Source: a bacterium
Lineage (GTDB): Bacteria > Patescibacteriota > Minisyncoccia > Phycocordibacterales > UBA1006
Direction of reading: 5' to 3'
Length of the DNA: 64,000 bases
Assembly: GCA_037144045.1 (NCBI GenBank)
Contig: JBAWXN010000002.1
Coordinates: 54,734 to 118,733, forward strand
The position numbers and the translations under genes are program-made. Within the stretch, counting starts at the first letter, position 1. Each line of letters begins with the position of its first letter. Positions 7,558-52,822 of this stretch are shown here, piece by piece. The notes under the pieces are model-generated. The model was given only the letters and a program-made list of their open reading frames with translations, had not been told where the DNA came from and did not search any database.

Positions 7558-7570
7558 AAATAATTAATAA

Positions 7571-8275: not shown

Positions 8276-8375
8276 ATGTGATAAAGTTAAAATACCTGAT
8301 AATCATAGCATGCTTGACTCGCGTCGTGCTATTTGCTATGGTAATTAGTGTACTAATAACACTATATCATATCCT

Positions 8376-10319: not shown

Positions 10320-10323
10320 AACT

Positions 10324-10983
10324 ATGCCAGATAAATCATTTCTTAACCCAACGCTTGTGGTAGACATTGTATTATTCACCATTGAGGACGGTGATTTGAA
10401 AGTCCTCTTGATTAATCGTGACGGTGATCCTTTTAAAGGATTTGAAGCACTTCCCGGAGGTTACCTCCTTGCGGGTGAAACAACCAAGACTGCTGCAGAG
10501 CGAGTCCTCAAGGAAAAAGCTGGAGTATCCGATATTTATATCGAACAGCTCTACACGTTTGATGAACTCAATCGTGATCCTCGTGGACCAGTATTTTCAG
10601 TAACCTACCTTGCGCTCGTTCCGCCAGGACTCAATCCTGAAGAACAAGGAACGCAACATCCTAAATGGTTTTCCGTGAAAAAACTTCCTAAGTTAGGATT
10701 TGATCACAAAGCCATTATTGATTACGCTAAGGAACGTCTTCAAGGAAAAATTGAATATACTACTATTGCATTTGGAACCCTCCCTAAACTATTTACCTTA
10801 ACCCAAGTGCAGCAAGTATACGAAGCGATTCTTGAAAAAGAAATTGATAAACGAAATTTCCGTAAGAAGATCGACCAACTTGGCTTCCTTAAAGAAACCA
10901 AGCAAACCCTATCTGGTATGCGCCAGCGCCCTGCGAAGTTGTACACCTTAGGTGCGAAATCTAAAACGATTAAATTGTTTTAA
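10324..10983 (+). CDS. nrtR: NrtR-like Nudix-related transcriptional regulator of NAD metabolism
   Basis: N-terminal Nudix fold with a degenerate box (LPGGYLLAGETTKTAAERVLKEKAGV, Glu replaced by Lys). C-terminal winged helix with NFRKKIDQLGFL...RPAKLYTL, characteristic of NrtR. Embedded among nadE/nadD/pncAB/prs. Confidence 0.6.
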   Translation: MPDKSFLNPTLVVDIVLFTIEDGDLKVLLINRDGDPFKGFEALPGGYLLAGETTKTAAERVLKEKAGVSDIYIEQLYTFDELNRDPRGPVFSVTYLALVPPGLNPEEQGTQHPKWFSVKKLPKLGFDHKAIIDYAKERLQGKIEYTTIAFGTLPKLFTLTQVQQVYEAILEKEIDKRNFRKKIDQLGFLKETKQTLSGMRQRPAKLYTLGAKSKTIKLF

Positions 10984-10984
10984 C

Positions 10985-11020
10985 AAAAAACCCTGTCACT
11001 ATGTGACAGGGTTTCCGTTT
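10985..11020 (+). terminator. Rho-independent terminator
   Basis: ACCCTGTCAC-tat-GTGACAGGGT hairpin followed by a T-rich tract. Confidence 0.5.
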
Positions 11021-11036
11021 TACTAAACGAAAAAAA

Positions 11037-11486
11037 TTAAAGGTTTTGAAGTATCACCAGCGCTTCGTCTTTTGTAATAATTTTATAGTTATTACTGTCT
11101 GAAACCGCAGTATAGTCTTCTTTACCATCTTCAAATCGAACATGGTAGCACAGTCGTAATGTGCCATCATCAAGCTTGAAGAATACTACTGCAATAATTT
11201 CAGCAGGCACATCTCTTCTAAAAGAAAAACTATGTGTGCCAACTAAATATGCTCTTTCGCACTTGGCACGATTTAGATGATCTTCTACTTCTACTTCTGT
11301 TGCAAAAATTGGCTTTAAGCCCGGAAGGAGTTCACCATTATCAGCATAAGCATTGTCACCTAGCCGCTTGGTTTTGTACGGTAAATTATCGAAATGAATC
11401 ATGTCATTTCCGCCAGGGTTGTGATTCATAACAAACACCTCGCCAGGTTTAAGTTCTGGATGATTTTTATTGAATTGCATTCGCAC
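11037..11486 (-). CDS. hypothetical protein (unknown function, inside the NAD cluster)
   Basis: 149-aa ORF between nrtR and nadD. No motif recognised. Confidence 0.35.
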   Translation of the reverse strand: MRMQFNKNHPELKPGEVFVMNHNPGGNDMIHFDNLPYKTKRLGDNAYADNGELLPGLKPIFATEVEVEDHLNRAKCERAYLVGTHSFSFRRDVPAEIIAVVFFKLDDGTLRLCYHVRFEDGKEDYTAVSDSNNYKIITKDEALVILQNL

Positions 11487-11553
11487 ATTTTTAGTTAAAC
11501 AAAGAAATACACTTATTTATAATATCATAAATAAGTGTATTTGTCAATATATC

Positions 11554-12156
11554 TTATCGATACAAGCCTTTTTCCTCGATATAATCATGCACCGCCTGCG
11601 GAATTACTTCTGTGGGTTTTTGATTTCCAGAAATCATGCCCCGTACATCGGTTGCGGATAGTTCTAGAACCCCCGGTAAAAAGGTTGCACGAATACCATG
11701 AGGCACGTCTACAGGAATATTTGAACGATTACGCACAATTAAATCGTGATACGTAACAATTTCATCACCGTATTCCCATGCCAAGATCGATCGCAAGATA
11801 TCATCCCCGGCAATGATTGAAAACGCATAATCAATATGTTTTGCTCGCAATGCACGCAGCGTGTGAAACGTATATGATGGCCGAGGCAGTTCGTCTTCGA
11901 TATCGCACACCTGCATATCCGGATTACTTACCGTTGCACGTCGTACCATTTCAAGGCGGTCTTCGAATGGAGCAAGGCTCCCTAATGGTTTATCAGGATT
12001 ATGTGGCGAAACCACATACCACACCTCGTTCACTAATCCTGCATCAAGGGCCGCTTGCCCAAGTGCAATATGACCGTTGTGAACAGGGTTAAATGAGCCA
12101 AAGAGTAAGCCAACTTTTTTCTTTTCTGCGTATTTCATAGGAATACTATAGCACAA
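11554..12156 (-). CDS. nadD: nicotinate-nucleotide adenylyltransferase
   Basis: FGSFNPVHNGH (HxGH nucleotidyltransferase motif) and the C-terminal LSATDVRGMI (ISSTxIR motif). 200 aa. Confidence 0.85.
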   Translation of the reverse strand: MCYSIPMKYAEKKKVGLLFGSFNPVHNGHIALGQAALDAGLVNEVWYVVSPHNPDKPLGSLAPFEDRLEMVRRATVSNPDMQVCDIEDELPRPSYTFHTLRALRAKHIDYAFSIIAGDDILRSILAWEYGDEIVTYHDLIVRNRSNIPVDVPHGIRATFLPGVLELSATDVRGMISGNQKPTEVIPQAVHDYIEEKGLYR

Positions 12157-12210
12157 GGAGCTACATTGACTTTTTATATAATATGTGATTAATTATAAAA
12201 AAATTTACAA

Positions 12211-13077
12211 ATGAAGAACAAAACAAGCACGTTTTTTGCACTCATCCTGAAATCACCCAAACTTCTGAAACTTTTCAAAATATTAAAATTAATGAAGTTT
12301 GCAAAACCCATGGTGACCATCATTACTATTGCAATTTCAATACTGGCATATTCTATCGTTTATAGTCCATGGATAGCAGTAGGACTCGTGACACTCATTT
12401 TTGTACACGAGATGGGCCACGTCATTGCAATGAACCGACTCGGATTTAAAACAAGTGGACCAGTATTCATACCGTTTCTAGGTGCCGCACTTTTTGCACC
12501 GAGAGACATGACCAGAAAACAAGAAGCCATTCTTGGTATTGGCGGTCCACTACTCGGTAGCCTCTTTGCTTTTCTTGTTGCCGGTATTGCATACCTTACA
12601 CATTCAAAAGAACTCATGATGATCGGTTATCTAGGTATTTTTATAAACCTATTTAATATGGTACCTATTAGTCCCCTTGACAGTGGAAGAGTTACTCAGG
12701 CGGTTGGTAAATTTTTTCCAATTATTGGCTTCTTAATACTTATCGGTGTCACGCTTGCTTTTAAATCTCCGGGGATACTCCTTATTTGGATCTTAGTTCT
12801 TTTTGATTTTACCTTCATGAAGGTTCAGCTACGCTTCTTTTTTGCTCTAATTGTTGAGCTTGCCATGATTTTCATGTTAACTCAAGGAATTGGCATTAGT
12901 GACGATGGTCAATTTTGGTCAGTATTCGCAGACGTAATTATTGGTGGCCTTTACTTATTACTCATTGGAGCAAGTATTGCCTCTGACGCAAAGAAGACGG
13001 AGGAAGTTTTTCTGAAGGCGCAAACCGCGAAGCTCTTACATTTAAAGAAAAACTGTTCTGGTTTTTTACATGGTTAA
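12211..13077 (+). CDS. site-2 protease family (peptidase M50) membrane metalloprotease
   Basis: HEMGH zinc motif in a TM helix. NMVPISPLDSGR matches the second M50 signature (NxxPxxxLDGG). Multiple TM segments. Confidence 0.7.
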   Translation: MKNKTSTFFALILKSPKLLKLFKILKLMKFAKPMVTIITIAISILAYSIVYSPWIAVGLVTLIFVHEMGHVIAMNRLGFKTSGPVFIPFLGAALFAPRDMTRKQEAILGIGGPLLGSLFAFLVAGIAYLTHSKELMMIGYLGIFINLFNMVPISPLDSGRVTQAVGKFFPIIGFLILIGVTLAFKSPGILLIWILVLFDFTFMKVQLRFFFALIVELAMIFMLTQGIGISDDGQFWSVFADVIIGGLYLLLIGASIASDAKKTEEVFLKAQTAKLLHLKKNCSGFLHG

Positions 13078-13259
13078 GTACATCTACAGTTTTACTGGTG
13101 TCATTATTCTATATAAAAAGCTCATTACAAGTTTTTGCACTTACTTAATATATACCTCCCTACAATTTTGCGGGGAGGTTATTTTGTTACTTGACTTTAA
13201 ACGTAATTCATGCTATTGTGTATACGGAAGTTTTTCCAAAACAAAAAATTTAAGAAACA

Positions 13260-13799
13260 ATGAAAGGAGCACTTATCGGATTTGGACTTTTTGCCGTAAT
13301 TGGCTTAGGCCTATTTTTTTACTACATCGGTTTGAAAAACACTGAACAACGCCAACGTAACGCAGTAAATGCACAAACACAGGCAGCGCAGGTTAATTTT
13401 GACGCCATGTGGAAAATCATTAAAGAACAAGCCGGTGTGGCTGATAAGCACAAGGATGCATTTAAGGAAATTTTTATTGGGCAGGCAGAGGCTCGCTATT
13501 CAAAAGACGGGAACCTTATGTTCAAAATGATTACCGAAGACAATCCTGCTTTCACACCCGAACTATATGCAAAATTAATGACTTCTATTGAAGCAAACCG
13601 TAAGGCGTTTGAATTCGAACAGAAAAAATTAATTAGCATGAACCAGGTGCACACCGATTTTGTAACTACATTCCCCGGTAGCATACTTGGCAAAGAAGTA
13701 ATTGAAATTAAATTAGTAACTTCAGCCAGAACAAAAAATGCTTACGAAACCGGTGAAGACAACGAAACATTAATTGACGAGAAGAAACCCACTAAGTAA
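13260..13799 (+). CDS. membrane-anchored hypothetical protein (LemA-like topology, motifs not conserved)
   Basis: Single N-terminal TM followed by a helical soluble domain. It lacks the LemA RRxDLIPNLV motif. Immediately precedes the Cys-rich membrane protein. Confidence 0.35.
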   Translation: MKGALIGFGLFAVIGLGLFFYYIGLKNTEQRQRNAVNAQTQAAQVNFDAMWKIIKEQAGVADKHKDAFKEIFIGQAEARYSKDGNLMFKMITEDNPAFTPELYAKLMTSIEANRKAFEFEQKKLISMNQVHTDFVTTFPGSILGKEVIEIKLVTSARTKNAYETGEDNETLIDEKKPTK

Positions 13800-13802
13800 C
13801 CC

Positions 13803-14939
13803 ATGGTAATATACGGAGCCGTACTTATCTCGATTATTGTTACCGCGCTCCTCTTCCTTTATTTTAGAAAGCAAATCGCGTGGTGGGAATATTTTATTCC
13901 CATCCCGGTTTCTTTACTATTAGTAATTGGAATGAAGGCCATGATTGAACAAACCCAAGTAACCTCTACGGAATACTGGGGCAGCATGGTTGCGCGCGTT
14001 GAATACTACGAAGACTGGGATGAGTGGATCACTCAAACCTGCTACAAAGAGTGCTGCTGTGATAAAGATGGTAAAAACTGTGGTCAAGAGCCATACGACT
14101 GCTCCCACAGAGACTACCATTCAGCCTACTGGCAAATCATTACTACAACAGGAGAAACGATTTCGATAACCGAATCGGAGTACGCCCGTATCAAAGGCAT
14201 ACTTGGCAATGAAACATTCAAAGATCTTGGTCGTGATTATTACACCAAGGACGGAGATGAATACTATTGCACCTGGGATGGGAGTGAAGCAAAAGCAATA
14301 CCTGTTACAACGGTTCACAGTTACGAAAACCGCGTAAAAGCAACCGACCTCAACGTGTTTCACTTTGACAAGGTTGATGATAGTACTAAAGTTCACTACG
14401 AACTGAAAGACTATCCCGGCATGGTAAACAATAACTACACTCAAAATTCATTACTCGGAGATAATTCCCCCGATGCAGTCCAAGCTAATAAAAAGCTTAA
14501 CTACATCAACGGGAAACTCGGACCTAAAAAACAGGTTCGCGTATTCCTCCTTGTTTTCAAAGACCAACCACTTGATGCAGGAATGTACCAAGAATGGTAC
14601 TGGGCCGGAGGAAACAAAAATGAGTTTGTGGTATGCGTTGGCATTGACCGTAACCGTAATGTTACCTGGTGCAAACCTATTAGTTGGACGTACAACGAAA
14701 CACTTAAGGTTGAGACCCGTGATTTTGTTACCCAGCAGAAGCAAGTGAACTTAACCGCTATCGCCAACTACTTGGAATCAGCCATAGATACCAAATTCCA
14801 AAGAAGACATTTCAAGGAGTTTAACTATCTAACGGTTGAACCACCAACGTGGGCCATTGTTCTTACCTACATCATTACTCTATTAGTCAATTTTGGAATC
14901 GGCTACTGGGTAATCAATAACGAATTTGACGAAGAGTAA
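13803..14939 (+). CDS. Cys-rich membrane protein with N- and C-terminal TM helices
   Basis: 378 aa. TM at both ends, a central domain with CYKECCCDKDGKNCG...YDCSH...YYCTWDG, and several N-glycosylation-like NxT/S sites. No known family recognised. Confidence 0.35.
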   Translation: MVIYGAVLISIIVTALLFLYFRKQIAWWEYFIPIPVSLLLVIGMKAMIEQTQVTSTEYWGSMVARVEYYEDWDEWITQTCYKECCCDKDGKNCGQEPYDCSHRDYHSAYWQIITTTGETISITESEYARIKGILGNETFKDLGRDYYTKDGDEYYCTWDGSEAKAIPVTTVHSYENRVKATDLNVFHFDKVDDSTKVHYELKDYPGMVNNNYTQNSLLGDNSPDAVQANKKLNYINGKLGPKKQVRVFLLVFKDQPLDAGMYQEWYWAGGNKNEFVVCVGIDRNRNVTWCKPISWTYNETLKVETRDFVTQQKQVNLTAIANYLESAIDTKFQRRHFKEFNYLTVEPPTWAIVLTYIITLLVNFGIGYWVINNEFDEE

Positions 14940-15009
14940 TCTTCATATCCCTTCTCTTAATTGAGGAGGGATTTTTTTAGGTAAATAAATCCAGTCCATT
15001 TTCTAACTA

Positions 15010-15038
15010 TTGACTTTTATCTATTAATATGTTATATT
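15010..15038 (+). promoter_or_regulatory. sigma70-like promoter upstream of pncA
   Basis: TTGACT-N17-TATATT about 90 nt upstream of the pncA start, in an AT-rich spacer. Confidence 0.35.
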
Positions 15039-15124
15039 AGTATAGATAGAGTATACAAAATATCATGTCTGTGATATATTGTACTTAATACACTAATTAG
15101 TTCATCTTAATAAATTTCATCAAT

Positions 15125-15748
15125 ATGATTGCATTCCTAATTACCATTCTCTTTCTGGTTGCCATAGTATATGTCCTTACCAGAATTATAGCTCTACTAA
15201 ACATCGACATGCAAAATGGTTTCACTCCAGGCGGAGAGCTTGGCGTGAAAGAAGGTGACGTAATTATACCAATAATTAACCGACTCACCTTCTGGTTCAT
15301 CCATATCTTTCGCGCTCTTGTCGTATTTTCTAGAGACTGGCATCCGCGTGTTTCTAAACACTTCAAGGAATTTGGCGGCAATTGGTCAACCCACTGTGTA
15401 ATTAATACACATAGTGCGGAATTCCATAAGGATTTGTTTGTTCCGAAAAATGCCAACATTCTTTCAAAAGGTTTGTACGAAGACGACCAAGCCTACTCGG
15501 CATTCGATAAGAATGCTCGCATCAACGGCATGGACCTAGCCACCTACTTGCGCAAGAAAGGAATAAAGATCCTCTTTGTCACCGGTCTCGCAACAGACTG
15601 GTGTGTGAAGGAAACTGTCCTAGATGCGCGAAAAAATGGATTCTGGGTATTTGTAATCACGAGCGCTATGCGTCCCGTGAATTTGAAACCTGGAGACGAA
15701 GAACGTGCCATCAAGGAAATGAAGGCCGCCGGTGCCATCATTATCTAA
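15125..15748 (+). CDS. pncA: nicotinamidase/pyrazinamidase (isochorismatase family)
   Basis: ALLNIDMQNGF (Asp), FSRDWHP, WSTHCV (catalytic Cys) and GLATDWCV. The N-terminus has an extra 20-aa hydrophobic extension, so the start is uncertain. Confidence 0.8.
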   Translation: MIAFLITILFLVAIVYVLTRIIALLNIDMQNGFTPGGELGVKEGDVIIPIINRLTFWFIHIFRALVVFSRDWHPRVSKHFKEFGGNWSTHCVINTHSAEFHKDLFVPKNANILSKGLYEDDQAYSAFDKNARINGMDLATYLRKKGIKILFVTGLATDWCVKETVLDARKNGFWVFVITSAMRPVNLKPGDEERAIKEMKAAGAIII

Positions 15749-15754
15749 TTTCCA

Positions 15755-15787
15755 AAAACAGCGCCCGGCTAACCCGGGCGTTTTTAT
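15755..15787 (+). terminator. Rho-independent terminator after pncA
   Basis: CGCCCGG-ctaac-CCGGGCG followed by TTTTTATT. Confidence 0.55.
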
Positions 15788-15816
15788 TACTCTAAGTTCG
15801 TGATATATTTAATTTT

Positions 15817-17136
15817 ATGACAACCAATAGAACTACAGAAAACCCAAAAACATTCTCAAGTCTTAATCTCGGACAGCTCGACGATTCGATGTTGAACGGC
15901 CAGATTGTTACTTCACTTCTTGAAGATGACTTTTATAAATTTTCCATGGGACAGGTGCTTTTCGACCATCCAGAATATGGCAATGAAATAATGGTTTGGC
16001 GATTCAAATGCCGAACTAAAATCGCACTTGGTGAATATATTACCGAGGCAGATTTCATGAACGAATACCACCATGTCACGAAACTGCGAGCAACAAAGAC
16101 TGAACTACATTACCTCCGAGGAACCAATGAATACGATGTCCGCATGTTTACTGAAGAGTACCTCGAACACCTTGCAAATCTCCAGGTACCTCCCGCAACA
16201 TTTCATGTAACCCCTGATAATCATATCGAAATTGAAGTCGCAGGACCATGGAGTCATGTGATGCATGCAGAAATGCCCATTTTGAAAATAATCAACACCC
16301 TCTTCTATCGCAGTCAGTTAAAAAATATGTCTCGGATACAACGAGAAGCGATCTATGCAGAAGGAATTAAACGACTCCATGGAACGATACAGCAAATCAA
16401 GGAGCATCCGCATGTTAAATTTTCTGATTTTGGAAACCGTCGCGCATTCGGACCCGTGTGGCATGATTATGTAGTGGCTCGATGTGCGGAAGAATTAGGT
16501 GACCAATTTATTGGGACTTCGAACGTTGCCCTTGCATCTAAATATGATCTGTCACCTATCGGAACCTGTGCTCACGAACTTTCTATGGGAATCACTGCAC
16601 TTATGTTCGACGGCACCGGACAGTCCGTAAAGGATTCACTCAACCGACTCCATGAAATTTGGTGGAATAAGTATGGTCAAGGACTCTCAATTAGTCTTCC
16701 CGATACCTACGGCACGACATTCACCCTTGATCTTATGACGGAACAAATGCTCCGCGACTGGAAAGGATTCCGTATCGATTCCAAAGACCCCATGGTGGCT
16801 ATTCCCGAATTGATCGAAAAATATACCGCTCTAGGTATCGATCCAAAAACAAAAATGGCAATTCCTAGTGACGGGCTCACTGTTGAATCAATGATCGCCA
16901 TCGCTGATACATTCCAAGGACAGATGAAAGTATCGTTTGGTATTGGAACGAATCTTACGAACAATATGGGTCTCAAACAACTCTCTATTGTGGTAAAACC
17001 ATATTCACTCGGAGGAAAATACTGCGTGAAACTTTCCGACAACCTCGAAAAGGCTATGGGAGAACCAGAGACCGTTGCTGCTTACAAGAAAGCACTCGGA
17101 TATCACGAAACCTATGACAAAGAAACTATTGTTTAA
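15817..17136 (+). CDS. pncB: nicotinate phosphoribosyltransferase
   Basis: LLEDDFYKFSM (PncB N-terminus), DFGNRRA and GTSNV motifs. 439 aa. Confidence 0.85.
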   Translation: MTTNRTTENPKTFSSLNLGQLDDSMLNGQIVTSLLEDDFYKFSMGQVLFDHPEYGNEIMVWRFKCRTKIALGEYITEADFMNEYHHVTKLRATKTELHYLRGTNEYDVRMFTEEYLEHLANLQVPPATFHVTPDNHIEIEVAGPWSHVMHAEMPILKIINTLFYRSQLKNMSRIQREAIYAEGIKRLHGTIQQIKEHPHVKFSDFGNRRAFGPVWHDYVVARCAEELGDQFIGTSNVALASKYDLSPIGTCAHELSMGITALMFDGTGQSVKDSLNRLHEIWWNKYGQGLSISLPDTYGTTFTLDLMTEQMLRDWKGFRIDSKDPMVAIPELIEKYTALGIDPKTKMAIPSDGLTVESMIAIADTFQGQMKVSFGIGTNLTNNMGLKQLSIVVKPYSLGGKYCVKLSDNLEKAMGEPETVAAYKKALGYHETYDKETIV

Positions 17137-31013: not shown

Positions 31014-31742
31014 ATGAACACGATTACCACCTCCCTTACCCAATTAGGTCTTTCAGTCCACGCTGCTGATATGTATGTATTCCTCCTTGAACGTGGACAA
31101 AAAACCGCAACTGAATTAGTTTCAGGATTACGACTCCATCGCCCGCAAGTCTATCGAGCCCTTGGCGAACTGCACGAATCACAACTTATTGTTCAAACCA
31201 CTTCTGGAAGTCAGAAAAAGTATTACGCTGAACCACCCAAGAAACTCGACCGCCTTGCCAAAGATGTTGCCGATCGCATTACCACTATCATTCCAGAACT
31301 CGAGGAACGCAGCTTACGCAAAAATAACCAACCTTTTGTGAAAATACTTGAAGGATCCAAAGGGATACGAGCCGTGTTCGACGACCTTGTGGAATCATGC
31401 AGCAAAGGCGAGATTTTTTATCGGTACACCTCGGAGCTTGATCTCGATAAAGTGAATAGCTTCCTTCCCAAAGATTATCGGATACGTCGTGACACAAAAA
31501 AACTTGAGCGGTTCGTTATTAGTAATAAATTATCCGGAAGTCAAAAAAAACAACGCCTCGAACGTACCCTAAAATTTATTCCTCAAGATGACCCGTTTAA
31601 TCAAAATATTATTGAACTGATCTATGCAAATAAGGTCGCCATTATTGACCTGAACACTCAGACGAGCCTCCTGATCGAAAATGAAAGTATTGCAGCATTT
31701 CAAAAGGTAATCTTCCGAAATTTGTACAAACGACTCATATAA
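31014..31742 (+). CDS. TrmB-like transcriptional regulator
   Basis: N-terminal wHTH LGLSVHAADMYVFLLERGQKTATELVSGLRLHRPQVYRALGELHESQLI, plus the C-terminal domain shared with the paralogs. Confidence 0.6.
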   Translation: MNTITTSLTQLGLSVHAADMYVFLLERGQKTATELVSGLRLHRPQVYRALGELHESQLIVQTTSGSQKKYYAEPPKKLDRLAKDVADRITTIIPELEERSLRKNNQPFVKILEGSKGIRAVFDDLVESCSKGEIFYRYTSELDLDKVNSFLPKDYRIRRDTKKLERFVISNKLSGSQKKQRLERTLKFIPQDDPFNQNIIELIYANKVAIIDLNTQTSLLIENESIAAFQKVIFRNLYKRLI

Positions 31743-38193: not shown

Positions 38194-38589
38194 TTATATA
38201 TTTGCGCAAGTATCGGTAATATTCCAGATGGTGCTCAATTTTGCAATCCTTGTTTCACGATTAATATGTACCGCTACCGCATCCAGCATATATTTTGTTT
38301 CATGTGAAACCTTTCGTTCAGCTAAATACCATAAAACAGTCTTTTTAATCTTGGCTATTTTGTAGCCAGTTATATTTTCAAAAGGATTATAGCAGGATCC
38401 GTATTTTATAAGTGTTTTAACTTCTATAAAATGGAGTACTGGACCTAAGCGGGCTACTATATCTATTTCACCAATCTTCTTAGTATAATTTCTTTCAACA
38501 ATGATAAAGCCTCGTGAAACGAGATAGTCTACGGTGATTGACTCACCAAGTTCCCCTATTTTCTGTTTCTCAGAACTAAACTGTTTCAT
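38194..38589 (-). CDS. YraN/UPF0102-family endonuclease-like protein
   Basis: GEIDIVARLGPVLHFIEVKT matches the UPF0102 core GEIDLIA...FVEVKTR (PD-(D/E)xK-like). 131 aa. Confidence 0.65.
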   Translation of the reverse strand: MKQFSSEKQKIGELGESITVDYLVSRGFIIVERNYTKKIGEIDIVARLGPVLHFIEVKTLIKYGSCYNPFENITGYKIAKIKKTVLWYLAERKVSHETKYMLDAVAVHINRETRIAKLSTIWNITDTCANI

Positions 38590-38676
38590 ATATCTATAGT
38601 AACAAACGACAATAAATAACTAATCAGTAATTAATAAAAGACACATTATCGTCATTATCGACAAATATATGACGTT

Positions 38677-38742
38677 TTATCCACTATTTACCCTTAGTTA
38701 TTAACACTTACCCCCAAGTTATCCACAGTTTTAGTGGATAAC
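38677..38742. promoter_or_regulatory. cluster of three DnaA-box-like 9-mers in an AT-rich spacer
   Basis: TTATCCACT (38677-38685), a perfect TTATCCACA (38719-38727) and an inverted TTATCCAC(T) (38734-38742, GTGGATAAC on the plus strand). They sit within 66 bp in the AT-rich YraN-to-tRNA-Arg intergenic region. Confidence 0.3.
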
Positions 38743-38766
38743 TGTCGTTAATGTCGATTAGGTTTC

Positions 38767-38812
38767 ATCTATAGAAAAAGACACTCATGGTTGAGTGTCT
38801 TTTTCTATAGAT
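38767..38812. repeat. 46-bp perfect palindrome (21-bp arms, 4-bp spacer); likely bidirectional terminator or recombination site
   Basis: ATCTATAGAAAAAGACACTCA-tggt-TGAGTGTCTTTTTCTATAGAT immediately 3' of tRNA-Arg. Confidence 0.5.
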
Positions 38813-38819
38813 TATTATG

Positions 38820-38891
38820 TGCACCCGCTAGGACTCGAACCTAGAACGACAGTTCCGAAGACTGTAGTGATATCCGTTTCACTACGGGTGC
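38820..38891 (-). tRNA. tRNA-Arg (anticodon TCG), CCA not encoded
   Basis: Acceptor GCACCCG/CGGGTGC, anticodon stem-loop ACAGT-CTTCGGA-ACTGT, T-arm AGGTTCGAGTCCT. Confidence 0.8.
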
Positions 38892-39021
38892 ATATTACGT
38901 TCTCAGGCACTATAAGCGCTTTCGATTGTTGAAACACTATACATGATATCTTACGATAAATCAAATAATACTGAACGTCTTCTTGAGAAAATAAGGCAAA
39001 TAAGGTATAGTATCCCTGCTT

Positions 39022-39095
39022 GCGGCCATGGTTTAGTGGTAGAACACGTCCTTGCCAAGGATGAGATGGGAGTCCGATTCTCCCTGGCCGCACCA
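39022..39095 (+). tRNA. tRNA-Gly (anticodon GCC), CCA encoded
   Basis: Acceptor GCGGCCA/TGGCCGC, D-loop AGTGGTAG, anticodon stem-loop CGTCC-TTGCCAA-GGATG, T-arm GGGAGTCCGATTCTCCC, 3' ACCA. Abuts the cca start. Confidence 0.8.
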
Positions 39096-39097
39096 AC

Positions 39098-40628
39098 GTT
39101 TCACATGAAACACTCTATTAATACTCATTTAATCCCCCAACATGTTTCGCATGTAACAGAATCCCTTAAAGCCGCAGGTTTTGAGGCTTTTGTGGTGGGT
39201 GGATGTGTCCGGGATATTATTATGGGGCGTACACCTAAAGACTGGGACATTACCACAGACGCAGTACCTGAACAGATCATTAGCCTTTTTGAGTCTCAGG
39301 GTAAAAAAGTAGTTTACGAGAATGCTTTTGGGACAGTTGCTCTCATAGAAGAAAACGAACCATTTGATTCAGTTACTCGCCAGATTGAGATTACCCCATT
39401 CCGCAGTGAAACAACCTATTCCGATAATCGACACCCTGATGCTGTTACTTTTTCTAAAACATTGAATGAGGATTTAAAACGACGTGACTTCACTATTAAC
39501 GCACTTGCCTATGACATTGAAAACGACATACTGATCGATAATTATCAAGGTTTAAACGACATTGAAAACGACATACTAAAAACCGTTGGAAATGCTGAAG
39601 AACGGCTTTCTGAGGACGCACTACGTATCCTTCGAGGTATCAGATTTGCCGCACAACTAGGATTTACTGTTTCACATGAAACAATCAATGCTATGTTTCA
39701 CGTGAAACATTTATTGAATAACATATCTCAGGAACGAATTCGGGATGAATTCGTTAAAATGATCGATTCGAACCACCCAATTATTGCACTAGGAATCATG
39801 AAGCAATTGGGTATACTGGAAATGATTATACCTGAATTACTTGAAGGTGATGGCTGTGAACAAGGCGGAGTTCATAAATACGATGTTTTTGAACATTTAT
39901 TGCATGCTTGCCAGCACGCAGCAGATAAAGATTATACGTTCCACGTGAAACTTGCAGCTCTGTTTCATGATATTGGGAAACCAAGAACACGGAGACCTGG
40001 ACAGAAGAAAGCTTGGACCTTCTATGGTCATGAAGTCGTAGGAGCTCGAATGTCGTTAAAGATCATGGAACGGCTCAGGTTTCCTAAGTCAGACGCAGAA
40101 CTTGTTGTGAAACTTGTCCGTTATCATATGTTCTTCAGCGACACTGAACAGATCACACTATCTGCGGTTCGTCGTATGATTGCGAATGTTTCACGTGAAA
40201 ACATTTGGACCTTGATGCAAATTCGAGAATGTGACCGCGTCGGTATGGCAAAACCTGAAGCTCCTTATCGCTTACGTAAGTACCACGCAATGATCGAAGA
40301 GTGCCTTCGTGATCCAATATCTGTTTCACAGCTTAAGATTGATGGCAATTACCTTATGAAGGAGTTACACGTGAAACCAGGTCCTCGTATGGGATGGATG
40401 TTACACGCACTTCTTGAAGAGGTGCTAGAAAACCCTGAAAAGAACACAATTGAGTATCTTTCTGCAAGAATCAACACTTTCCAAGGTTTCACAGATTTAG
40501 AACTTAGAAAATTAGGCGAACAAGGTAAGCAAACTAAAGAAGAATTGGATGATGCTGAAATCACCAAGTTACACGTGAAACATGGGGTTGCAGCTCAATC
40601 AAAGAAGAAGTAATGTTTCACGTGAAAC
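39098..40628. repeat. array of eight near-perfect copies of the 14-bp palindrome GTTTCACGTGAAAC (CACGTG/CATGTG core) within and flanking the cca CDS
   Basis: Copies at 39098-39111 (overlapping the ATG), 39669-39682, 39695-39708, 39938-39951, 40188-40201, 40364-40377, 40568-40581 and 40615-40628 (2 nt after the stop). More copies lie just outside at 38297-38310 and 40812-40825, with half-sites at 39405, 40323 and 40911. The copies sit in two different reading frames. Confidence 0.6.
39105..40613 (+). CDS. cca: CCA-adding tRNA nucleotidyltransferase with C-terminal HD domain
   Basis: GGCVRDIIMGRTPKDWDITT (class II NTase GGxVRD...DxD), RRDFTINALA, and an HD domain ALFHDIGK. ORF 38943..40613 runs through the tRNA-Gly gene, so the start was placed at the first ATG after the tRNA (MKHSINTHL). 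Confidence 0.8.
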   Translation: MKHSINTHLIPQHVSHVTESLKAAGFEAFVVGGCVRDIIMGRTPKDWDITTDAVPEQIISLFESQGKKVVYENAFGTVALIEENEPFDSVTRQIEITPFRSETTYSDNRHPDAVTFSKTLNEDLKRRDFTINALAYDIENDILIDNYQGLNDIENDILKTVGNAEERLSEDALRILRGIRFAAQLGFTVSHETINAMFHVKHLLNNISQERIRDEFVKMIDSNHPIIALGIMKQLGILEMIIPELLEGDGCEQGGVHKYDVFEHLLHACQHAADKDYTFHVKLAALFHDIGKPRTRRPGQKKAWTFYGHEVVGARMSLKIMERLRFPKSDAELVVKLVRYHMFFSDTEQITLSAVRRMIANVSRENIWTLMQIRECDRVGMAKPEAPYRLRKYHAMIEECLRDPISVSQLKIDGNYLMKELHVKPGPRMGWMLHALLEEVLENPEKNTIEYLSARINTFQGFTDLELRKLGEQGKQTKEELDDAEITKLHVKHGVAAQSKKK

Positions 40629-40637
40629 AAAAAGGCC

Positions 40638-42266
40638 TCATTGGGTCTTTTTTGTTTCTATAGCTGCTTTTATGAGACCATCAAACAAAGGATGTGGCTT
40701 GTCTGGTCGGGATAGGAATTCAGGATGACTTTGAGTTCCTACAAAATAGGGATGCATTTCTGGATTTAATTCAATCATTTCTACAAGATAATCTTCGGGA
40801 TTATCTCCAATGTTTCCCGTGAAACGTCCTGAAATAAGCATTCCACGATCTTCTAATTGTTTTACATATTGATTTTGGACTTCTAGGCGGTGTCTGTGAC
40901 GTTCTATGGTCTGTGAAACACCGAATAGCGATGCAATTTTGGTTTCTGGCTGTATATCACACCTGTAATCGCCCAGGCGCATAGTCCCGCCTTTTTGCGT
41001 AATTTTGAGTTGTTCCGGAATGAAGTCGATAATGAAATCTGAATCTGGTGAAGTGTTTTCCATTTCTCGGGATACGGCGCGCGGAATGCCGCAGGCATTC
41101 CGCGCGAACTCAACTACAGCAAGCTGCATTCCTAAACAGATACCAAAATAGGGCACCTTGTGCATACGCACATACTCAATCGCTTTTATTTTGCCTTCCA
41201 TTCCACGCGAACCGAATCCACCGGGAACAATAACAGCATCGTACGTCTTCAATTCAGTAATCAGTGCATCGTCGTCAGCATCTAAAATAGTTACTACGCA
41301 ATCAACATTGTTGGCAGCTGCAGCTATTTTAACCGATTCTATAACGCTCAAATAAGCATCTGATAATTTCGTATACTTAGATACCAATGCAACTTTTACT
41401 TTTATTTCCTTAGGTTTTTGAATATCATGGAAAAACCGAGGAAGCTTAATGTGCAGGTCTCTATCCATAAATTCAGCAAGTACTTCCGATATCTTGGTAT
41501 TTTCAAGTAAATGAATGGGTACCGAATAAATACTCGACATATCAGGGCAGGGGATGACTCGATCTTGATTCAAGTTTCCAAATAGAGCAATTTTTTCAAG
41601 GAGTCCTAGTGGTAAATCACCATGATCGGGCTCATAGCGTGCCGCAATAATATCAGGCTGAATTCCTAAACGAAGCAGTTCTCGTAATGAATTTTGCAGC
41701 GGTTTTGACTTATATTCACCAGAAACCTTAAGGAAGGGTACATATCCCAAGTGAATATGAAGGACTTTACCTGGGTGATCGCGCCGAAATTGACGTAACC
41801 CCTCCAAAAACACTTCTGCTTCCATGTCGCCCGTAGAGCCTCCAATTTCGATAACTTTTACATCACTTTCTGTTCCTGAGTATATTTTCTTAATATAATC
41901 AGTTATATGAGGAATAAGTTGTACCGTATGACCCAAAAAGACCCCTTCACGCTCCTGATCAAGGATTGATTGGTAAATACGTCCAGCACTCATCGTTGAT
42001 CGTTTGGTAAGATGGGTTTGGAGGAAGCGTTCGTAGTGGCCTAAATCAAGGTCTGTTTCCGCGCCGTCCCCAAGTACATATACCTCACCATGTTCGTAAG
42101 GCGACATGGTTCCAGGATCAACATTCAAATAGGGGTCCATTTTTAAAGCTTCGACGCTGATGCCGCTTGATTTAAGAATCAAGCCAATGCTTGCACCAAT
42201 GATGCCCTTCCCGAGTCCAGACACCACTCCGCCAGTAACTACAATGTAGCGTGCGCCGGTATTCAC
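40638..42266 (-). CDS. pyrG: CTP synthase
   Basis: YIVVTGGVVSGLGKG N-terminus, amidoligase domain, and a C-terminal glutamine amidotransferase domain (GICLGMQ). Confidence 0.95.
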   Translation of the reverse strand: MNTGARYIVVTGGVVSGLGKGIIGASIGLILKSSGISVEALKMDPYLNVDPGTMSPYEHGEVYVLGDGAETDLDLGHYERFLQTHLTKRSTMSAGRIYQSILDQEREGVFLGHTVQLIPHITDYIKKIYSGTESDVKVIEIGGSTGDMEAEVFLEGLRQFRRDHPGKVLHIHLGYVPFLKVSGEYKSKPLQNSLRELLRLGIQPDIIAARYEPDHGDLPLGLLEKIALFGNLNQDRVIPCPDMSSIYSVPIHLLENTKISEVLAEFMDRDLHIKLPRFFHDIQKPKEIKVKVALVSKYTKLSDAYLSVIESVKIAAAANNVDCVVTILDADDDALITELKTYDAVIVPGGFGSRGMEGKIKAIEYVRMHKVPYFGICLGMQLAVVEFARNACGIPRAVSREMENTSPDSDFIIDFIPEQLKITQKGGTMRLGDYRCDIQPETKIASLFGVSQTIERHRHRLEVQNQYVKQLEDRGMLISGRFTGNIGDNPEDYLVEMIELNPEMHPYFVGTQSHPEFLSRPDKPHPLFDGLIKAAIETKKTQ

Positions 42267-47751: not shown

Positions 47752-48726
47752 TCACTTGTTCTTGTACTCGTTCACCATGCGTACCTCTAGATGAGCAAGT
47801 GGGTGAAGTGGAGTAGGGAGGTTGTCTAATGTGACCCATTTGATTTCATCAAATTTATGCGGCTCACCATTTATGACTTGTTCGCGATCTACTTCAACGA
47901 GGAAAATCATACATAACCAATGTCGCAAACCTCGATCTGATGTACGAAATAAATCATGGTATCCTAGGAAATTTATTTCTTTTGGAGTAACACCATATTC
48001 TTCTCGTAATTCTTTATGAACGGTTTGCACGATCGAATCACCGAATTCAACACGACCACCTCCGAAGTCCCATGCACCATGTTCGTCATTACATTGAATA
48101 CTGCGCTTGTTCATTAAATAATTTCCTTGACCATCATGGCATACATAACAAATAGTAATTGCTGGATAGTCGAGCCCTCTCCGCGACTCAATTTGTTTTC
48201 TTAGTGTGTCATGTTCTCCGAAACATTCGGAAATTACTTTTTTATTTACTTCAAAATTTTCTTCGAAAGAATAATTCGAATTAACTACATAGTTGAAGCA
48301 GGTCGTCCGATCATACACCTCGTTATAAAAATTACAGAAAGATAAGATAGTAGCGACACCTCGTTCCTCGAACAAGGTCATAGGCTTCTCTGATGAGACC
48401 ATATTAATGACAATGTCTCGCCTCGGGTCAAACAAAACACAAAAGTCTCGAGGATTGCGTACGCCATCAAAAATATTTCCCAAATCCTTACTTGAATTAT
48501 TTTTTGCGTGATTAGCAAAAAAATCTGGATCAATTTTTAAAAACTCTTTTGATTGATTGGTTATTCGTTGCGTGTAATCAAATAATGATTCACCTTCATG
48601 CCGTGGAAACTGTTGTTTCAAGTAAGAAGATAGTTGAACCCGCTTATAGTTAAATTGCTCTATAAGAAAATTTCCAAGTGTTGTTTTGCCGGTCCCTGTA
48701 GAACCAATGATAAATACATTTTTCAT
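47752..48726 (-). CDS. fusion protein: N-terminal nicotinamide-riboside-kinase-like P-loop kinase plus C-terminal Nudix hydrolase
   Basis: N-terminus MKNVFIIGSTGTGKTTLGNFL and DPDFF resemble human NRK1 (MKTFIIGISGVTNSGKTTLAKNL; QDDFF). The C-terminus FGGGRVEFGDSIVQTVHKELREEYGV is a canonical Nudix box. Confidence 0.5.
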   Translation of the reverse strand: MKNVFIIGSTGTGKTTLGNFLIEQFNYKRVQLSSYLKQQFPRHEGESLFDYTQRITNQSKEFLKIDPDFFANHAKNNSSKDLGNIFDGVRNPRDFCVLFDPRRDIVINMVSSEKPMTLFEERGVATILSFCNFYNEVYDRTTCFNYVVNSNYSFEENFEVNKKVISECFGEHDTLRKQIESRRGLDYPAITICYVCHDGQGNYLMNKRSIQCNDEHGAWDFGGGRVEFGDSIVQTVHKELREEYGVTPKEINFLGYHDLFRTSDRGLRHWLCMIFLVEVDREQVINGEPHKFDEIKWVTLDNLPTPLHPLAHLEVRMVNEYKNK

Positions 48727-48804
48727 ACGATTTTTTTAGTGAAACTATTTGTTTGTTAAGGAATATTACTTGCACGATAGCAGGGAATAGCTATACTTGT
48801 ATAC

Positions 48805-49620
48805 ATGTCAGACAATATTCGACAACATAAACCCTCCACGAACCCCGAGGACCTGTTATCTAGACTAGGCCTCAGCGATAAAGAATCACATATCTACCTC
48901 GACTTGTTACAAAACGGTCCACGACCTGTCGCAGTTATTGCCAAACGCGCCGGAGTAACGCGCACCAATGGATATGACCTCGTAAAAAACCTCGAGAAGA
49001 AAGGACTCTGTTTTAGCAGTGGAACCACCTATGGTAAAAAAATTCATGCTCATGATCCTGTCGTATTCAAAGAAATTATTGCAGAAAAAAAGCGATCTCT
49101 TGATCACTTAGCAGCAGAACTTAACGACAGTGTTCATGTCTTTAAAAAAACAAAAACGACACCCTACACCAATCATGAGGTCACCTATCTGGAGGGTACA
49201 GAAAATATTAAGAAAATATTTCCCATGATGGCAGCACCTCATGTTTCACAGGTATATGGTGTTGGCTCTGAATTAGAACTCGAAGAATATGTTGGTCGTG
49301 AAACACTTGAGCAATTCCATGAGCAGCGTAAGCGCAATAACACCCACCTTTCAGTCCTCCGAGCAGGACCCCAACGTCTTTCGGGAAATGCGTTTCACGA
49401 TGATGTCGCCTATTTGCGCGAAGTCCGGATTCGCCCTAAAGGTAAGGTTCGACTGAAATCGCAGCTGTATTTATTTGATAACACCATCATTTTCTTAAAC
49501 CTATTCGACAAACCATTCGCAACCATTATTCACAACGAACCCATGTTTATTATGTTTCACTCATGGTACGAATTCATCTGGAATGCTTCTGAAACAGTGG
49601 TTTCACGGAAAAGTAAATAA
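48805..49620 (+). CDS. TrmB-like transcriptional regulator
   Basis: N-terminal wHTH LGLSDKESHIYLDLLQNGPRPVAVIAKRAGVTRTNGYDLVKNLEKKGL. The C-terminal domain ends in the FHSWYEFIWNAS motif shared with the paralogs. The coding sequence carries seven GTTTCAC/GTGAAAC heptamers. Confidence 0.6.
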   Translation: MSDNIRQHKPSTNPEDLLSRLGLSDKESHIYLDLLQNGPRPVAVIAKRAGVTRTNGYDLVKNLEKKGLCFSSGTTYGKKIHAHDPVVFKEIIAEKKRSLDHLAAELNDSVHVFKKTKTTPYTNHEVTYLEGTENIKKIFPMMAAPHVSQVYGVGSELELEEYVGRETLEQFHEQRKRNNTHLSVLRAGPQRLSGNAFHDDVAYLREVRIRPKGKVRLKSQLYLFDNTIIFLNLFDKPFATIIHNEPMFIMFHSWYEFIWNASETVVSRKSK

Positions 49621-49642
49621 CTTCTAAAGTTTTTATAAGCAA

Positions 49643-49677
49643 AAAATAAACCCATCTTGTTACAGATGGGTTTTTGT
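49643..49677. terminator. bidirectional Rho-independent terminator
   Basis: AACCCATCT-tgttacag-ATGGGTTT with A/T flanks. Confidence 0.5.
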
Positions 49678-49690
49678 GAAACGTTTCACA
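49675..49690. promoter_or_regulatory. perfect CRP/FNR-like palindrome TGTGAAACGTTTCACA (swapped-half version of the cca palindrome)
   Basis: TGTGA-N6-TCACA consensus, located between the convergent 3' ends of the TrmB-like gene and the HAD-NadM-Nudix gene. Confidence 0.3.
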
Positions 49691-51190
49691 TTAATTAATG
49701 AGAGCAATAATATCTTGCTCTTCCTCATCAATGAGTTTAGCTAACTGACTTTTAGTTACATAGCGAACTTCAGCGATTTGCGCACCGCGGTAATGAGGAC
49801 TCACGCGCGCAGACTTTTCAATATCCACTTCATAAATCATAGCGCGAGTTTTTATACCCGCCTCACGATGACGCCAATCAGGCACCGCAACATCACCTAA
49901 AAACTTTAACGGTTTTCCACTCAGTTGGGTTTCAAGTTTTGTTGTAACCTTTCTGGTAAGCGCCTCTTCGAAGGTAGTATCCTTTGAAGGTACCATATAC
50001 CCACCAGGGAAACGAAATTTTCTCTCGTCTGACGATGCATACCTAACAATCGCAATTTTACCTTTCGCATTTTTAATGATAGCGCGTACCTGCATAAACA
50101 GCAGCACCTTCGGCTGTCGCAACTGTGCAGCAATAATTCCATGCGCATACGTCACATTAAGTGATTTATGCGACAGTACACGTCTCCGCAAATCAGTGGC
50201 GTTTACATCTGGTATTTCTTCAACACCATACACCGGAAACCTTCCCGTAGGAATGTAATGCTTTCCAAAGCCATCACGACCTTCAATAAGACATACGTCA
50301 TCATTAGCAAGATCTGGTTTCTGAATAAGTGAGGCAATTTGTTTTTCAATTTCAGTAGTCCAAACGCTGTTATAGCGCTGGTTGCGTAATGGAAAAATTT
50401 CATACTGCCTATCGCCATACCCAGCTTCAGTAATTGCTTCTTCAAAAAGTTTTTTGCGAACCCAGAATGGTAACACATTTCTCCCTGAAGGGAACGAGCG
50501 ATCGCACGCTAAAAAAATAATAACCATTTCGCCACGAGCAAACGCTTCATGAACTACTTGCATGTGCCCAACTGTTGGACCATCGGGACTGTGTGTACGC
50601 ATCACTGTCGATGCAACTAAAAATTTCTTTTTAGGACCTGTCAGCAATGGAGTAACCTTGACTGCCTCCAAAAGAAGTGACCAGTGTTTTTTTGGATCAA
50701 AGCCTGCTTTGTCATCCAAAATTAAATTCATGTATGGCTTCTTCGAAAAATCGGCATAGTGAGTATTACCCTGTTCGGGATTTTCGTTTACATAGGTAAA
50801 AATTATTCCTAACTTTTCAAACATTGCCTTGTACTGTTCCACATGATCATCTTTCGATGATGTGTAAATAACAAGCACTATGTCTTTTCGTGCGGAAAGA
50901 GCCTGAAGGGTCGCGAGTGCTCCATCAAAAAAATTTCTAGATATGTCACCACCCGTATAACTGGAACCTAGTACGGTGTCGTGCAAATCTACAAAAATGT
51001 AAATTTTGTCCCATTCGCGTGTACGAGCTTTTACAAACTCAGCAAACCATTTCGCAATAAGGGAATCTTTCATTAATTCTTCTATATTCATTTTTAATCG
51101 TTTTGCGTATTTAACCATTAAAATATGAATAAGTAAAGGGTCTTCATATTTGTAGCATGTCGTGCTATTGTGATCAAAATAAAACAGCAT
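49691..51190 (-). CDS. three-domain protein: HAD-like phosphatase plus NadM-type nicotinamide-nucleotide adenylyltransferase plus degenerate Nudix domain
   Basis: N-terminal HAD-like domain (IYIFVDLHDTVL; LILDDKAGF). The central part matches archaeal-type NMNAT: PTVGHMQVVHEAF (TxGH), NSVWTTEIE (cf. NSIWVSYVE) and NATDLRRRVL (cf. SGTEIRRRML). C-terminus FPGGYMVPSKDTTFEEALTRKVTTKLE is a Nudix box with the catalytic Glu residues lost. Confidence 0.5.
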   Translation of the reverse strand: MLFYFDHNSTTCYKYEDPLLIHILMVKYAKRLKMNIEELMKDSLIAKWFAEFVKARTREWDKIYIFVDLHDTVLGSSYTGGDISRNFFDGALATLQALSARKDIVLVIYTSSKDDHVEQYKAMFEKLGIIFTYVNENPEQGNTHYADFSKKPYMNLILDDKAGFDPKKHWSLLLEAVKVTPLLTGPKKKFLVASTVMRTHSPDGPTVGHMQVVHEAFARGEMVIIFLACDRSFPSGRNVLPFWVRKKLFEEAITEAGYGDRQYEIFPLRNQRYNSVWTTEIEKQIASLIQKPDLANDDVCLIEGRDGFGKHYIPTGRFPVYGVEEIPDVNATDLRRRVLSHKSLNVTYAHGIIAAQLRQPKVLLFMQVRAIIKNAKGKIAIVRYASSDERKFRFPGGYMVPSKDTTFEEALTRKVTTKLETQLSGKPLKFLGDVAVPDWRHREAGIKTRAMIYEVDIEKSARVSPHYRGAQIAEVRYVTKSQLAKLIDEEEQDIIALIN

Positions 51191-52060: not shown

Positions 52061-52822
52061 CTACTTATTCCAGAGCTCTTTGAACACTTCACGCATATTG
52101 TGTGCCATTACAGAATCATGAATTTCAACCAGATAACAAGGTTTCTGCGCTGTAACAATAAGAACTATATACGAGCCAATAATCCACTGAGTACCGGTAA
52201 TATTATTTGTTCCTTTCCAGAAACGAATGTTTCTTTGGTTGATTTTTTCACTCTGCATTTGTGACTCAATATCTGAATCATTTGAAAACATTTTAAGGTT
52301 CACTTCTTTAGGTGCGTGTTTCCAAAACCAAACAATCCAATTTTTGTATTTTTCGACAAAGGTATGATCCTGAAAACCCCACCACGTAGGGTCATTTGCC
52401 AGATTACTTTCGATCCACCGAGGTGTTGCATCATGTAAATACTTATCAATATCTTCCTCGGCAACGAATCTGATTTTTGGTATTGAAAAAGTAGTAGATT
52501 GAGATACCAGTTTTAAAGCATCTTTTAATTCATGGAGACCTTCTTCCTTTTCCCTAAACTCTTTTCTGTCGTGCTCCAAAATTTTGTCTATTTCTTCAGG
52601 TTGAGCAGGGAGATAGTATAATGTCTTGCTTCCAAGATCTTCAATAATAAGACCTCGTGCTTTTAGCTCGTTTGCAACGCTATACACTGTAGTCCGATTT
52701 ATACCTGTTTTTCGTGAAATAGTTACTGGTGCAATTTTTCCGCTTTCTAAGATTAATTTATACACCTTTTTTGCTTTTATAGTTAACCCAAGCTTTTCTA
52801 AGATTTTGTCTAAGTTATCCAT
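52061..52822 (-). CDS. TrmB-like transcriptional regulator
   Basis: N-terminal wHTH LGLTIKAKKVYKLILESGKIAPVTISRKTGINRTTVYSVANELKARGLI. C-terminal domain ending HNMREVFKELWNK. Divergent from the ABC transporter operon. Confidence 0.6.
   Translation of the reverse strand: MDNLDKILEKLGLTIKAKKVYKLILESGKIAPVTISRKTGINRTTVYSVANELKARGLIIEDLGSKTLYYLPAQPEEIDKILEHDRKEFREKEEGLHELKDALKLVSQSTTFSIPKIRFVAEEDIDKYLHDATPRWIESNLANDPTWWGFQDHTFVEKYKNWIVWFWKHAPKEVNLKMFSNDSDIESQMQSEKINQRNIRFWKGTNNITGTQWIIGSYIVLIVTAQKPCYLVEIHDSVMAHNMREVFKELWNK

Follow-up and report, generated by a model that had tools for sequence, protein, structure and literature searches.

Chromosomal parS sites, to which ParB (Spo0J) binds, follow the consensus TGTTNCACGTGAAACA (PMC7022226), and ParB can also recognize a single arm of this palindrome: in Pseudomonas aeruginosa, it occupies hundreds of solitary half-parS sites (GTTCCAC/GTTTCAC), as seen by chromatin immunoprecipitation followed by sequencing (ChIP-seq), and spreading is not needed for this occupancy (PMC5961200; PMC10419367). 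The ParB proteins of several other species also bind half-parS (PMC7022226). For these half-sites, the authors of the P. aeruginosa work proposed a role in keeping ParB on the nucleoid or in bridging to the parS complex; mutating 25 of them had mild effects only (PMC10419367), and the significance of half-parS has been described as open (PMC7022226). Here we analyse a 64,000-nt stretch of contig JBAWXN010000002.1, from a bacterium of the Patescibacteria (the whole stretch is hereafter called the window). In this DNA, seven copies of the heptamer GTTTCAC/GTGAAAC occupy the 3' half of a gene encoding a TrmB-like winged helix-turn-helix (wHTH) regulator (five copies) and the spacer that follows it (two copies), and an array of palindromes in and around cca lies about 9 kb upstream of this cluster. 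Taken together, the observations below make it fairly probable that the seven heptamers form a selected array of parS half-sites bound by ParB.

The heptamer cluster and its conservation

Direct reading of positions 48600-50000, combined with an exact search, identified seven exact copies of GTTTCAC/GTGAAAC spanning 49243-49689 (Table 1). A cluster of seven near the end of the TrmB-like gene had been reported in a preliminary description of the window, and all seven copies were found exactly; that description pointed to the right sites, with positions off by 1-2 nt and one of them mistyped (49564 for 49554), and the segment GAAACAGTGGTTTCAC, which it listed, contains just one exact copy, GTTTCAC. 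It had also judged a chance origin improbable, and rightly so: about 0.08-0.18 copies are expected in the span of the cluster, against the seven seen. The higher of these figures corresponds to the background density of 0.40/kb measured outside both clusters (0.18 copies per 447 bp), for which the probability of at least seven copies is 1e-9 and that of at least six copies 4e-8.

The coding function of the gene does not account for the cluster either. When synonymous codons were resampled with the protein sequence fixed, 0.8-1.07 intragenic copies were expected, compared with five observed (P = 0.0004-0.002). Amino-acid repeats were ruled out as the cause of the heptamers, since the five intragenic copies are read in three different phases and encode differing peptides (Table 1), with about one copy expected instead of five. 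Over the whole window, the heptamer occurs 52 times versus 10.9 +/- 3.2 times in dinucleotide shuffles, and GTTTCAC ranks first among all 7-mers for over-representation under a maximal-order Markov model. Two places account for this excess, with 23 copies in and around cca (38252-40919) and eight in 48739-49689; the other 58.5 kb of the window has the heptamer at 0.40/kb.

Two sets of copies stand apart from the cluster. The peripheral copy in the divergent promoter region (Table 1) is degenerate in one relative (L007) and missing from the matching upstream sequence of other relatives; it probably lies outside the selected cluster. Further along, between 60884 and 62841, the genes for ComM and a LysM peptidase contain five plus-strand GTTTCAC copies over some 2 kb, two of them 22 nt apart (62819 and 62841). 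The syntenic stretches of L005 and L003 do not conserve these five, which are probably due to chance.

We then compared the cluster with its counterparts in related genomes. Orthologues of the TrmB-like protein are 61-90% identical to the window protein; the DNA of eleven independent orthologous loci, together with the window, gave a set of 12 sequences (59-89% pairwise protein identity) that were aligned in a codon-aware manner, and a first test was made on nine orthologues (60-87% pairwise amino-acid identity). The unit of the test was the amino-acid-invariant degenerate codon column, with the third position scored as lying inside or outside a heptamer. Among the nine orthologues, a single codon was used in six of the seven columns inside heptamers but in only three of 111 outside (Fisher p = 1.7e-7), and the mean pairwise codon identity was 0.94 inside versus 0.42 outside. 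The same nine sequences share four invariant nucleotide runs of at least 7 nt: three overlap heptamer sites, two are exactly GTTTCAC, and site 5 is one of the four. With all 12 sequences, the single-codon columns amounted to three of four inside and none of 101 outside (p = 2e-5).

The individual sites tell the same story. All five intragenic heptamers share alignment columns in most of the 12 sequences (counts in Table 1). At site 3, the preceding codon is GCG, GAG or GTG (Ala, Glu or Val), and the third-position G that opens the heptamer is retained. Site 2, which is on the minus strand, has disappeared from L005 and L003 through an Arg to Tyr change, and in both loci a plus-strand heptamer has instead appeared 16 nt downstream. 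Beyond the gene, the 14-mer GTGAAACGTTTCAC, made of two everted heptamers, is identical in the window and in L018, L016, L015 and L019, differs at one position in L017 and is kept amid intergenic sequence that has otherwise diverged. Its flanking bases vary (T..A in the window and L016, T..G in L018, C..G in L015, C..A in L019), and other loci have alternative contents in this spacer: two separated single copies in L007, one single copy in L014 and a direct tandem pair in L005. The cluster nevertheless comprises seven copies in seven of the 12 loci and six copies in two, and heptamers occur in it at 10.7/kb, compared with 0.35/kb over the remaining 161 kb of the loci (cca arrays left out).

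More distant homologues served as heptamer-free controls. They are 37-42% identical, come from metagenome-assembled genomes labelled Candidatus Saccharibacteria, Nomurabacteria and Paceibacterota, and were the sole matches in the genome collection, which places the source of the window among the Patescibacteria (candidate phyla radiation); no heptamer was found in their genes, which encode other residues at the positions concerned. A metagenome scan gave no further orthologues. Conservation of the heptamers in relatives, on which the preliminary description had made its proposal depend, is borne out: the same codons carry them, with frozen synonymous positions, across the 12 loci. Because this synonymous-site conservation is position-specific across sequences of 59-89% pairwise identity, chance and recent transfer are excluded. 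These comparisons show the heptamer to be the unit under selection, and it is so on double-stranded DNA, whatever the strand, the reading frame or the exact arrangement. What selection maintains, on the same evidence, is site number or site density at the locus (about seven copies in about 0.5 kb) rather than one arrangement, and the control homologues indicate that the motif belongs to the locus, not to the encoded protein.

That the protein does not need the motif is also seen in L020, a 2178-bp contig (from ERR14949374) encoding an orthologue of 75% identity with one of the five sites left, different neighbours and an xerC/D fragment downstream; a further observation concerns the limits of the cluster. 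In L007 (position 11239), L017 (9331) and L018 (2616), the downstream, convergent NadM-like gene contains a minus-strand heptamer some 293-299 nt in from its 3' end, which is not found at the corresponding position of the window; since it is conserved in these three close relatives, the cluster reaches into the neighbouring gene in some genomes. As for the L020 contig, both contig ends encode LRFFLESNQ, suggesting a circular or tandemly repeated assembly.

The parS array at cca and the probable binder of the heptamer

The identity of the heptamer follows from the palindromes at cca. With up to three mismatches allowed, the 16-mer TGTTTCACGTGAAACA has 13 matches in the window versus 0.42 expected, eleven of them in the cca region (Table 1), and two copies are perfect (39694 and 40614). 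In the literature, this exact 16-mer appears in papers on ParB, parS or related aspects of chromosome organization. By its agreement with the consensus, the cca palindrome array is a canonical parS array, and GTTTCAC is therefore one arm of parS, identical to the arm of the genome's own palindrome. The heptamers in cca are themselves constrained, with an identical codon in three genomes at 19 of 20 columns compared with 118 of 353 elsewhere (p=3e-8), and the parS positions in cca correspond one to one among the window, L007 and L017. Solitary half-sites also surround this array.

The TrmB-like locus differs in that no full parS is present in 48.7-49.7 kb: the best 16-mer, at 49290, has three mismatches (13/16), and its left, non-matching arm varies at synonymous sites among the orthologues. 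The only palindrome of the locus has its arms in reverse, everted order. Wherever both elements are visible (the window, L007, L017 and L005), the cluster lies 4.6-10 kb from the parS array. The heptamer thus ties the TrmB-like locus to the cca palindrome array, as the preliminary description had suggested when it invoked a shared DNA-binding factor, and ParB is the most plausible such factor. The other possibility it raised, a shared origin by co-acquisition, finds no support in base composition: with a GC content of 0.38-0.41, the motif-rich loci do not stand out from the window as a whole (0.397).

The heptamer being the arm of a parS conserved in this very lineage, ParB is the most economical binder, and the half-site binding seen in P. 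aeruginosa and several other species provides experimental precedent. In the mechanism that we propose, which takes up the one put forward for P. aeruginosa, the helix-turn-helix of ParB (Spo0J) would bind each half-site at low affinity, and would do so with no CTP-dependent clamp loading, a step for which a full palindrome is required. The cluster could then act as a secondary landing pad that keeps ParB near the centromere; alternatively, it could form a bridge with the ParB-parS complex in cca, helping to shape the partition complex. We infer ParB binding, its independence of CTP and the bridging from the DNA sequences. A more specific proposal, which we put forward only tentatively, is that selection assembled the half-parS heptamers into a dedicated secondary centromere element, with about seven monomer sites and an everted dimer site, which would capture ParB independently of CTP, bridge to parS about 9 kb away and so define a centromeric loop in the ultra-small Patescibacteria.

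Several points weigh against ParB as the binder. Neither the 64-kb window nor 20 related loci yielded a parB gene, a ParB domain or a box II motif in motif and Pfam scans, and only the conservation of the parS array at synonymous sites implies that ParB is present in the lineage. Half-parS binding was not seen for the ParB proteins of Bacillus subtilis, Streptomyces coelicolor, Vibrio cholerae and Corynebacterium glutamicum (PMC7022226), and the half-sites of P. aeruginosa are scattered roughly randomly, so that a selected cluster has no precedent. The heptamers are also biased towards the sense (plus) strand (five of seven in the window, all of them in L005 and L003), which simple monomer binding does not predict. 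Finally, L002 retains four sites but has no cca array within 10 kb upstream.

Could another protein be responsible? A TrmB-like paralogue (for example, one involved in autoregulation through intragenic roadblocks) or an uncharacterized nucleoid protein might bind GTTTCAC singly or in loose pairs; its match to the parS arm would then be a coincidence, or the factor would compete with ParB. The evidence for selection on DNA does not in itself point to a binder, the cluster lies within a regulator gene in a region that has several TrmB-like paralogues, and the lack of parB in the window and the four sites of L002, which has no cca array nearby, fit this explanation as well. We nevertheless consider it unlikely: the heptamer is the exact arm of a perfect 16-bp parS present in the same genomes, and a second factor with the same 7-mer would be unparsimonious. 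With regard to TrmB in particular, the gene has its own conserved promoter/operator-like element (TCGACA..TCGACA), which is shared with the heptamer-free homologues and lacks GTTTCAC, and five sites in the 3' half of a coding sequence, followed by others in the terminator region, would be atypical for autoregulation. The strand bias could instead reflect a motif acting in RNA, GUUUCAC being the target of an RNA-binding protein, a small RNA seed or an endoribonuclease (MazF/PemK toxin) that tunes transcript stability, and a PemK-family toxin gene does lie directly downstream in L002. This explanation has little to recommend it, since the antisense site 2 is kept in nine of 12 loci and is replaced by a sense copy when lost, so that orientation appears irrelevant; moreover, the two copies of the intergenic pair are on opposite strands and follow the terminator, the DNA palindromes (parS) in cca are built of this heptamer too, no Rfam family is found in the region and the toxin gene occurs in one locus only. 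We attach an equally low probability to a genome-wide signal (DNA-uptake sequence, Chi-like site, restriction or methylation motif) or to a chance or hitch-hiking feature. A dependence on DNA uptake is assumed for such bacteria, the part of L005 syntenic with the window has a TfoX_N gene and, even outside the clusters, the heptamer is about twice as frequent as expected from dinucleotides; however, uptake and Chi signals are spread genome-wide, whereas the heptamer is found at 0.35-0.40/kb outside the clusters versus 10.7/kb inside, and chance does not produce position-specific conservation of synonymous sites across 59-89% pairwise identity.

The everted pair lends itself to yet another explanation, namely that the palindrome is the operator of a dimeric transcription factor (of the CRP/FNR or LacI/GalR type) and the intragenic heptamers are unrelated to it; the preliminary description had called it a textbook CRP/FNR site. 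The match to the CRP core is exact in the window and in L016, the single substitution of L017 falls within the N6 spacer, and the 14-mer is intact in five of 12 loci and one base off in a sixth. The TGTGA-N6-TCACA pattern, however, arises because two heptamers abut tail to tail and happen to be flanked by T and A. Both flanks are kept in just two of the five loci with a perfect 14-mer, while the heptamers persist, and in L007, L014 and L005 single copies or a direct pair take the place of the palindrome. As originally placed, the palindrome sits where the 3' ends of the TrmB-like and NadM-like genes converge, between their stop codons and right after the terminator hairpin, with no promoter to act on. 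A dimeric operator would also leave five solitary heptamers under synonymous-site constraint unexplained. No cyclic nucleotide (cNMP)-binding/CRP or LacI-domain protein was found in the window, nor any CRP/FNR gene (40 open reading frames (ORFs) compared with Pfam, the remaining recognizable ORFs being judged by eye). Variable flanks, position, solitary heptamers and the lack of a CRP/FNR-family gene in the window leave the CRP/FNR assignment unsupported, and we regard a dimeric operator of any of these types as highly improbable.

Two specific operators were rejected in the same way. The centre of the palindrome, AAACGTTT, resembles LacI/GalR-type operators; a site of this type was discarded on account of the flanks, the position and the solitary sites, and no LacI-family gene was found in the window. 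NrtR is encoded in the window, but the palindrome it recognizes is 21 bp long, has a GT-N7-AC core (PMC2330246) and sits in promoters, upstream of NAD genes, whereas the site considered here is an even-length 14/16-mer, GT-N10-AC, located at 3' ends.

Other features of the window

The features of the TrmB-like locus and the parS array are collected in Table 1. The terminator hairpin that follows the TrmB-like gene is found in the same place in relatives, where its sequence is unlike that of the window. The product of the convergent gene gave no match in Pfam or in a sequence search of the Protein Data Bank. Apart from four tRNAs, no Rfam match was obtained in the region, and a structured RNA was rejected.

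Table 1. Coordinates of the features discussed; for sites 1 to 5, fractions give the orthologues in which the heptamer occupies the same alignment columns
Feature	Coordinates	Strand	Description
Exact heptamers of the cluster	49243(+), 49298(-), 49392(+), 49554(+), 49600(+), 49676(-), 49683(+)		
Half-parS site 1	49243..49249	+	GTT TCA C, phase 0, V-S; peptide HVSQ; 11/12 orthologues; TCA serine codon invariant
Half-parS site 2	49298..49304	-	cGT GAA AC, phase 1, opposite orientation; peptide GRET; 9/12 orthologues
Half-parS site 3	49392..49398	+	gcG TTT CAC, phase 2; peptide AFHD; 11/12 orthologues
Half-parS site 4	49554..49560	+	atG TTT CAC, phase 2; peptide MFHS; 9/12 orthologues
Half-parS site 5	49600..49606	+	GTT TCA Cgg, phase 0; peptide VVSR; 11/12 orthologues
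Everted (tail-to-tail) half-site pair TGTGAAACGTTTCACA	49675..49690		Exact; sole occurrence in the window; core 14-mer 49676-49689
Peripheral heptamer, divergent promoter region	48739..48745	-	Exact in the window
TrmB-like wHTH regulator gene	48805..49620	+	Pfam PF01978 TrmB, E=2.5e-11, residues 18-72
Bidirectional intrinsic-terminator hairpin	49648..49673		10-pair stem with flanking A and T runs
Convergent NadM-like gene	49691-51190	-	499 aa; weak NadM/HAD similarity (NCBIfam)
Primary parS array	38296..40826		UPF0102 gene, tRNA-Arg, tRNA-Gly, cca and pyrG 3' end; eleven 16-mers

The TrmB-like gene is preceded by a promoter, TTGCAC ... TATACT, which together with the first 25 nt or so of the gene (ATGTCAGACAATATTCGACAACAT, a TCGACA-type direct repeat) covers 48755-48830. 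This promoter/leader element is conserved at the DNA level even in the homologues of 37-42% identity (L008-L013, at the gene start); in L008-L011, the fourth codon is TAA, which leaves the TCGACA-type repeat untranslated there. GTTTCAC is absent from the element, a candidate autoregulatory operator or leader. Genes for TrmB-like wHTH paralogues are expanded in the region, with copies at 31014-31742, 48805-49620 and 52061-52822 in the window and five copies in 20 kb of L002; among these paralogues, the gene at 48805 is the only one with a heptamer cluster.

Beside the parS array, in the spacer between the UPF0102 and tRNA-Arg genes, four DnaA-box-like 9-mers (TTATCCACA, at most one mismatch) lie within 90 bp (38655-38741). 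No sign change of the GC skew was found anywhere in the window, and neither dnaA nor dnaN was seen among its ORFs.

The gene content is that of common bacterial housekeeping functions. Profile searches identified, among others, the genes for CTP synthase, cca and NrtR as well as the four tRNAs; inspection of the translations by eye added trigger factor, ClpP, a NAD-salvage gene set, RNase Y, XerC/D and ComM. A NAD-metabolism neighbourhood extends over 6571-17136: NrtR (10324-10983, PF21906 NrtR_WHD) and a Nudix gene (7571-8275) were found there with Pfam, and PRPP synthetase, NadE, NadD, PncA and PncB by eye from the translations.

Significance and comparison with known systems

While parS and half-parS are already known, a clustered, positionally conserved and synonymously constrained half-site array with an everted pair in Patescibacteria is, to our knowledge, undescribed. 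A literature search on half-parS and on parS/ParB in these bacteria returned no report of such a cluster, and one on ParB in the candidate phyla radiation gave nothing informative. Should ParB be the binder, the locus would provide direct evolutionary evidence that half-sites can function, which would be the first of its kind; if this were confirmed, half-parS function would become directly testable at a compact 0.5-kb model locus with seven sites. The findings also offer a first view of how the centromere is organized in Patescibacteria. Note that the everted pair calls for caution in motif annotation in that a 'perfect CRP site' may be the by-product of two abutting half-sites.

The locus shares features with several described systems. 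Like the GATC/SeqA clusters at oriC or the clusters of DnaA boxes, it has a short motif that is locally dense and conserved regardless of coding, implying cooperative low-affinity binding; it differs from them in its motif and presumed binder, and no replication-origin features are present at the TrmB-like locus. The resemblance to a CRP/FNR operator is confined to the 16-mer of the everted pair, which fits the CRP core pattern; this 16-mer lacks a promoter context, conserved flanks and a nearby CRP gene, and it leaves the solitary heptamers unaccounted for. As regards canonical parS (TGTTNCACGTGAAACA, exemplified by the Spo0J/ParB sites of B. subtilis), the half-site is the same, it often lies within coding sequence and it is near other parS sites, but the TrmB-like locus has no head-to-head palindrome and, with reversed arms, no ParB clamp loading is expected there.

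The closest counterpart is half-parS of P. aeruginosa (Kawalek et al. 2018, PMC5961200; 2023, PMC10419367). GTTTCAC is the second-best bound variant in that organism, where half-sites are, as here, arms of the organism's own parS, mostly intragenic and found in either orientation. In P. aeruginosa, however, half-sites number in the hundreds and are scattered roughly at random, with no selection shown on individual sites. The array described here, known from its sequence, instead gathers about seven copies into 0.5 kb at a fixed locus, with conservation at synonymous sites and a tail-to-tail pair.

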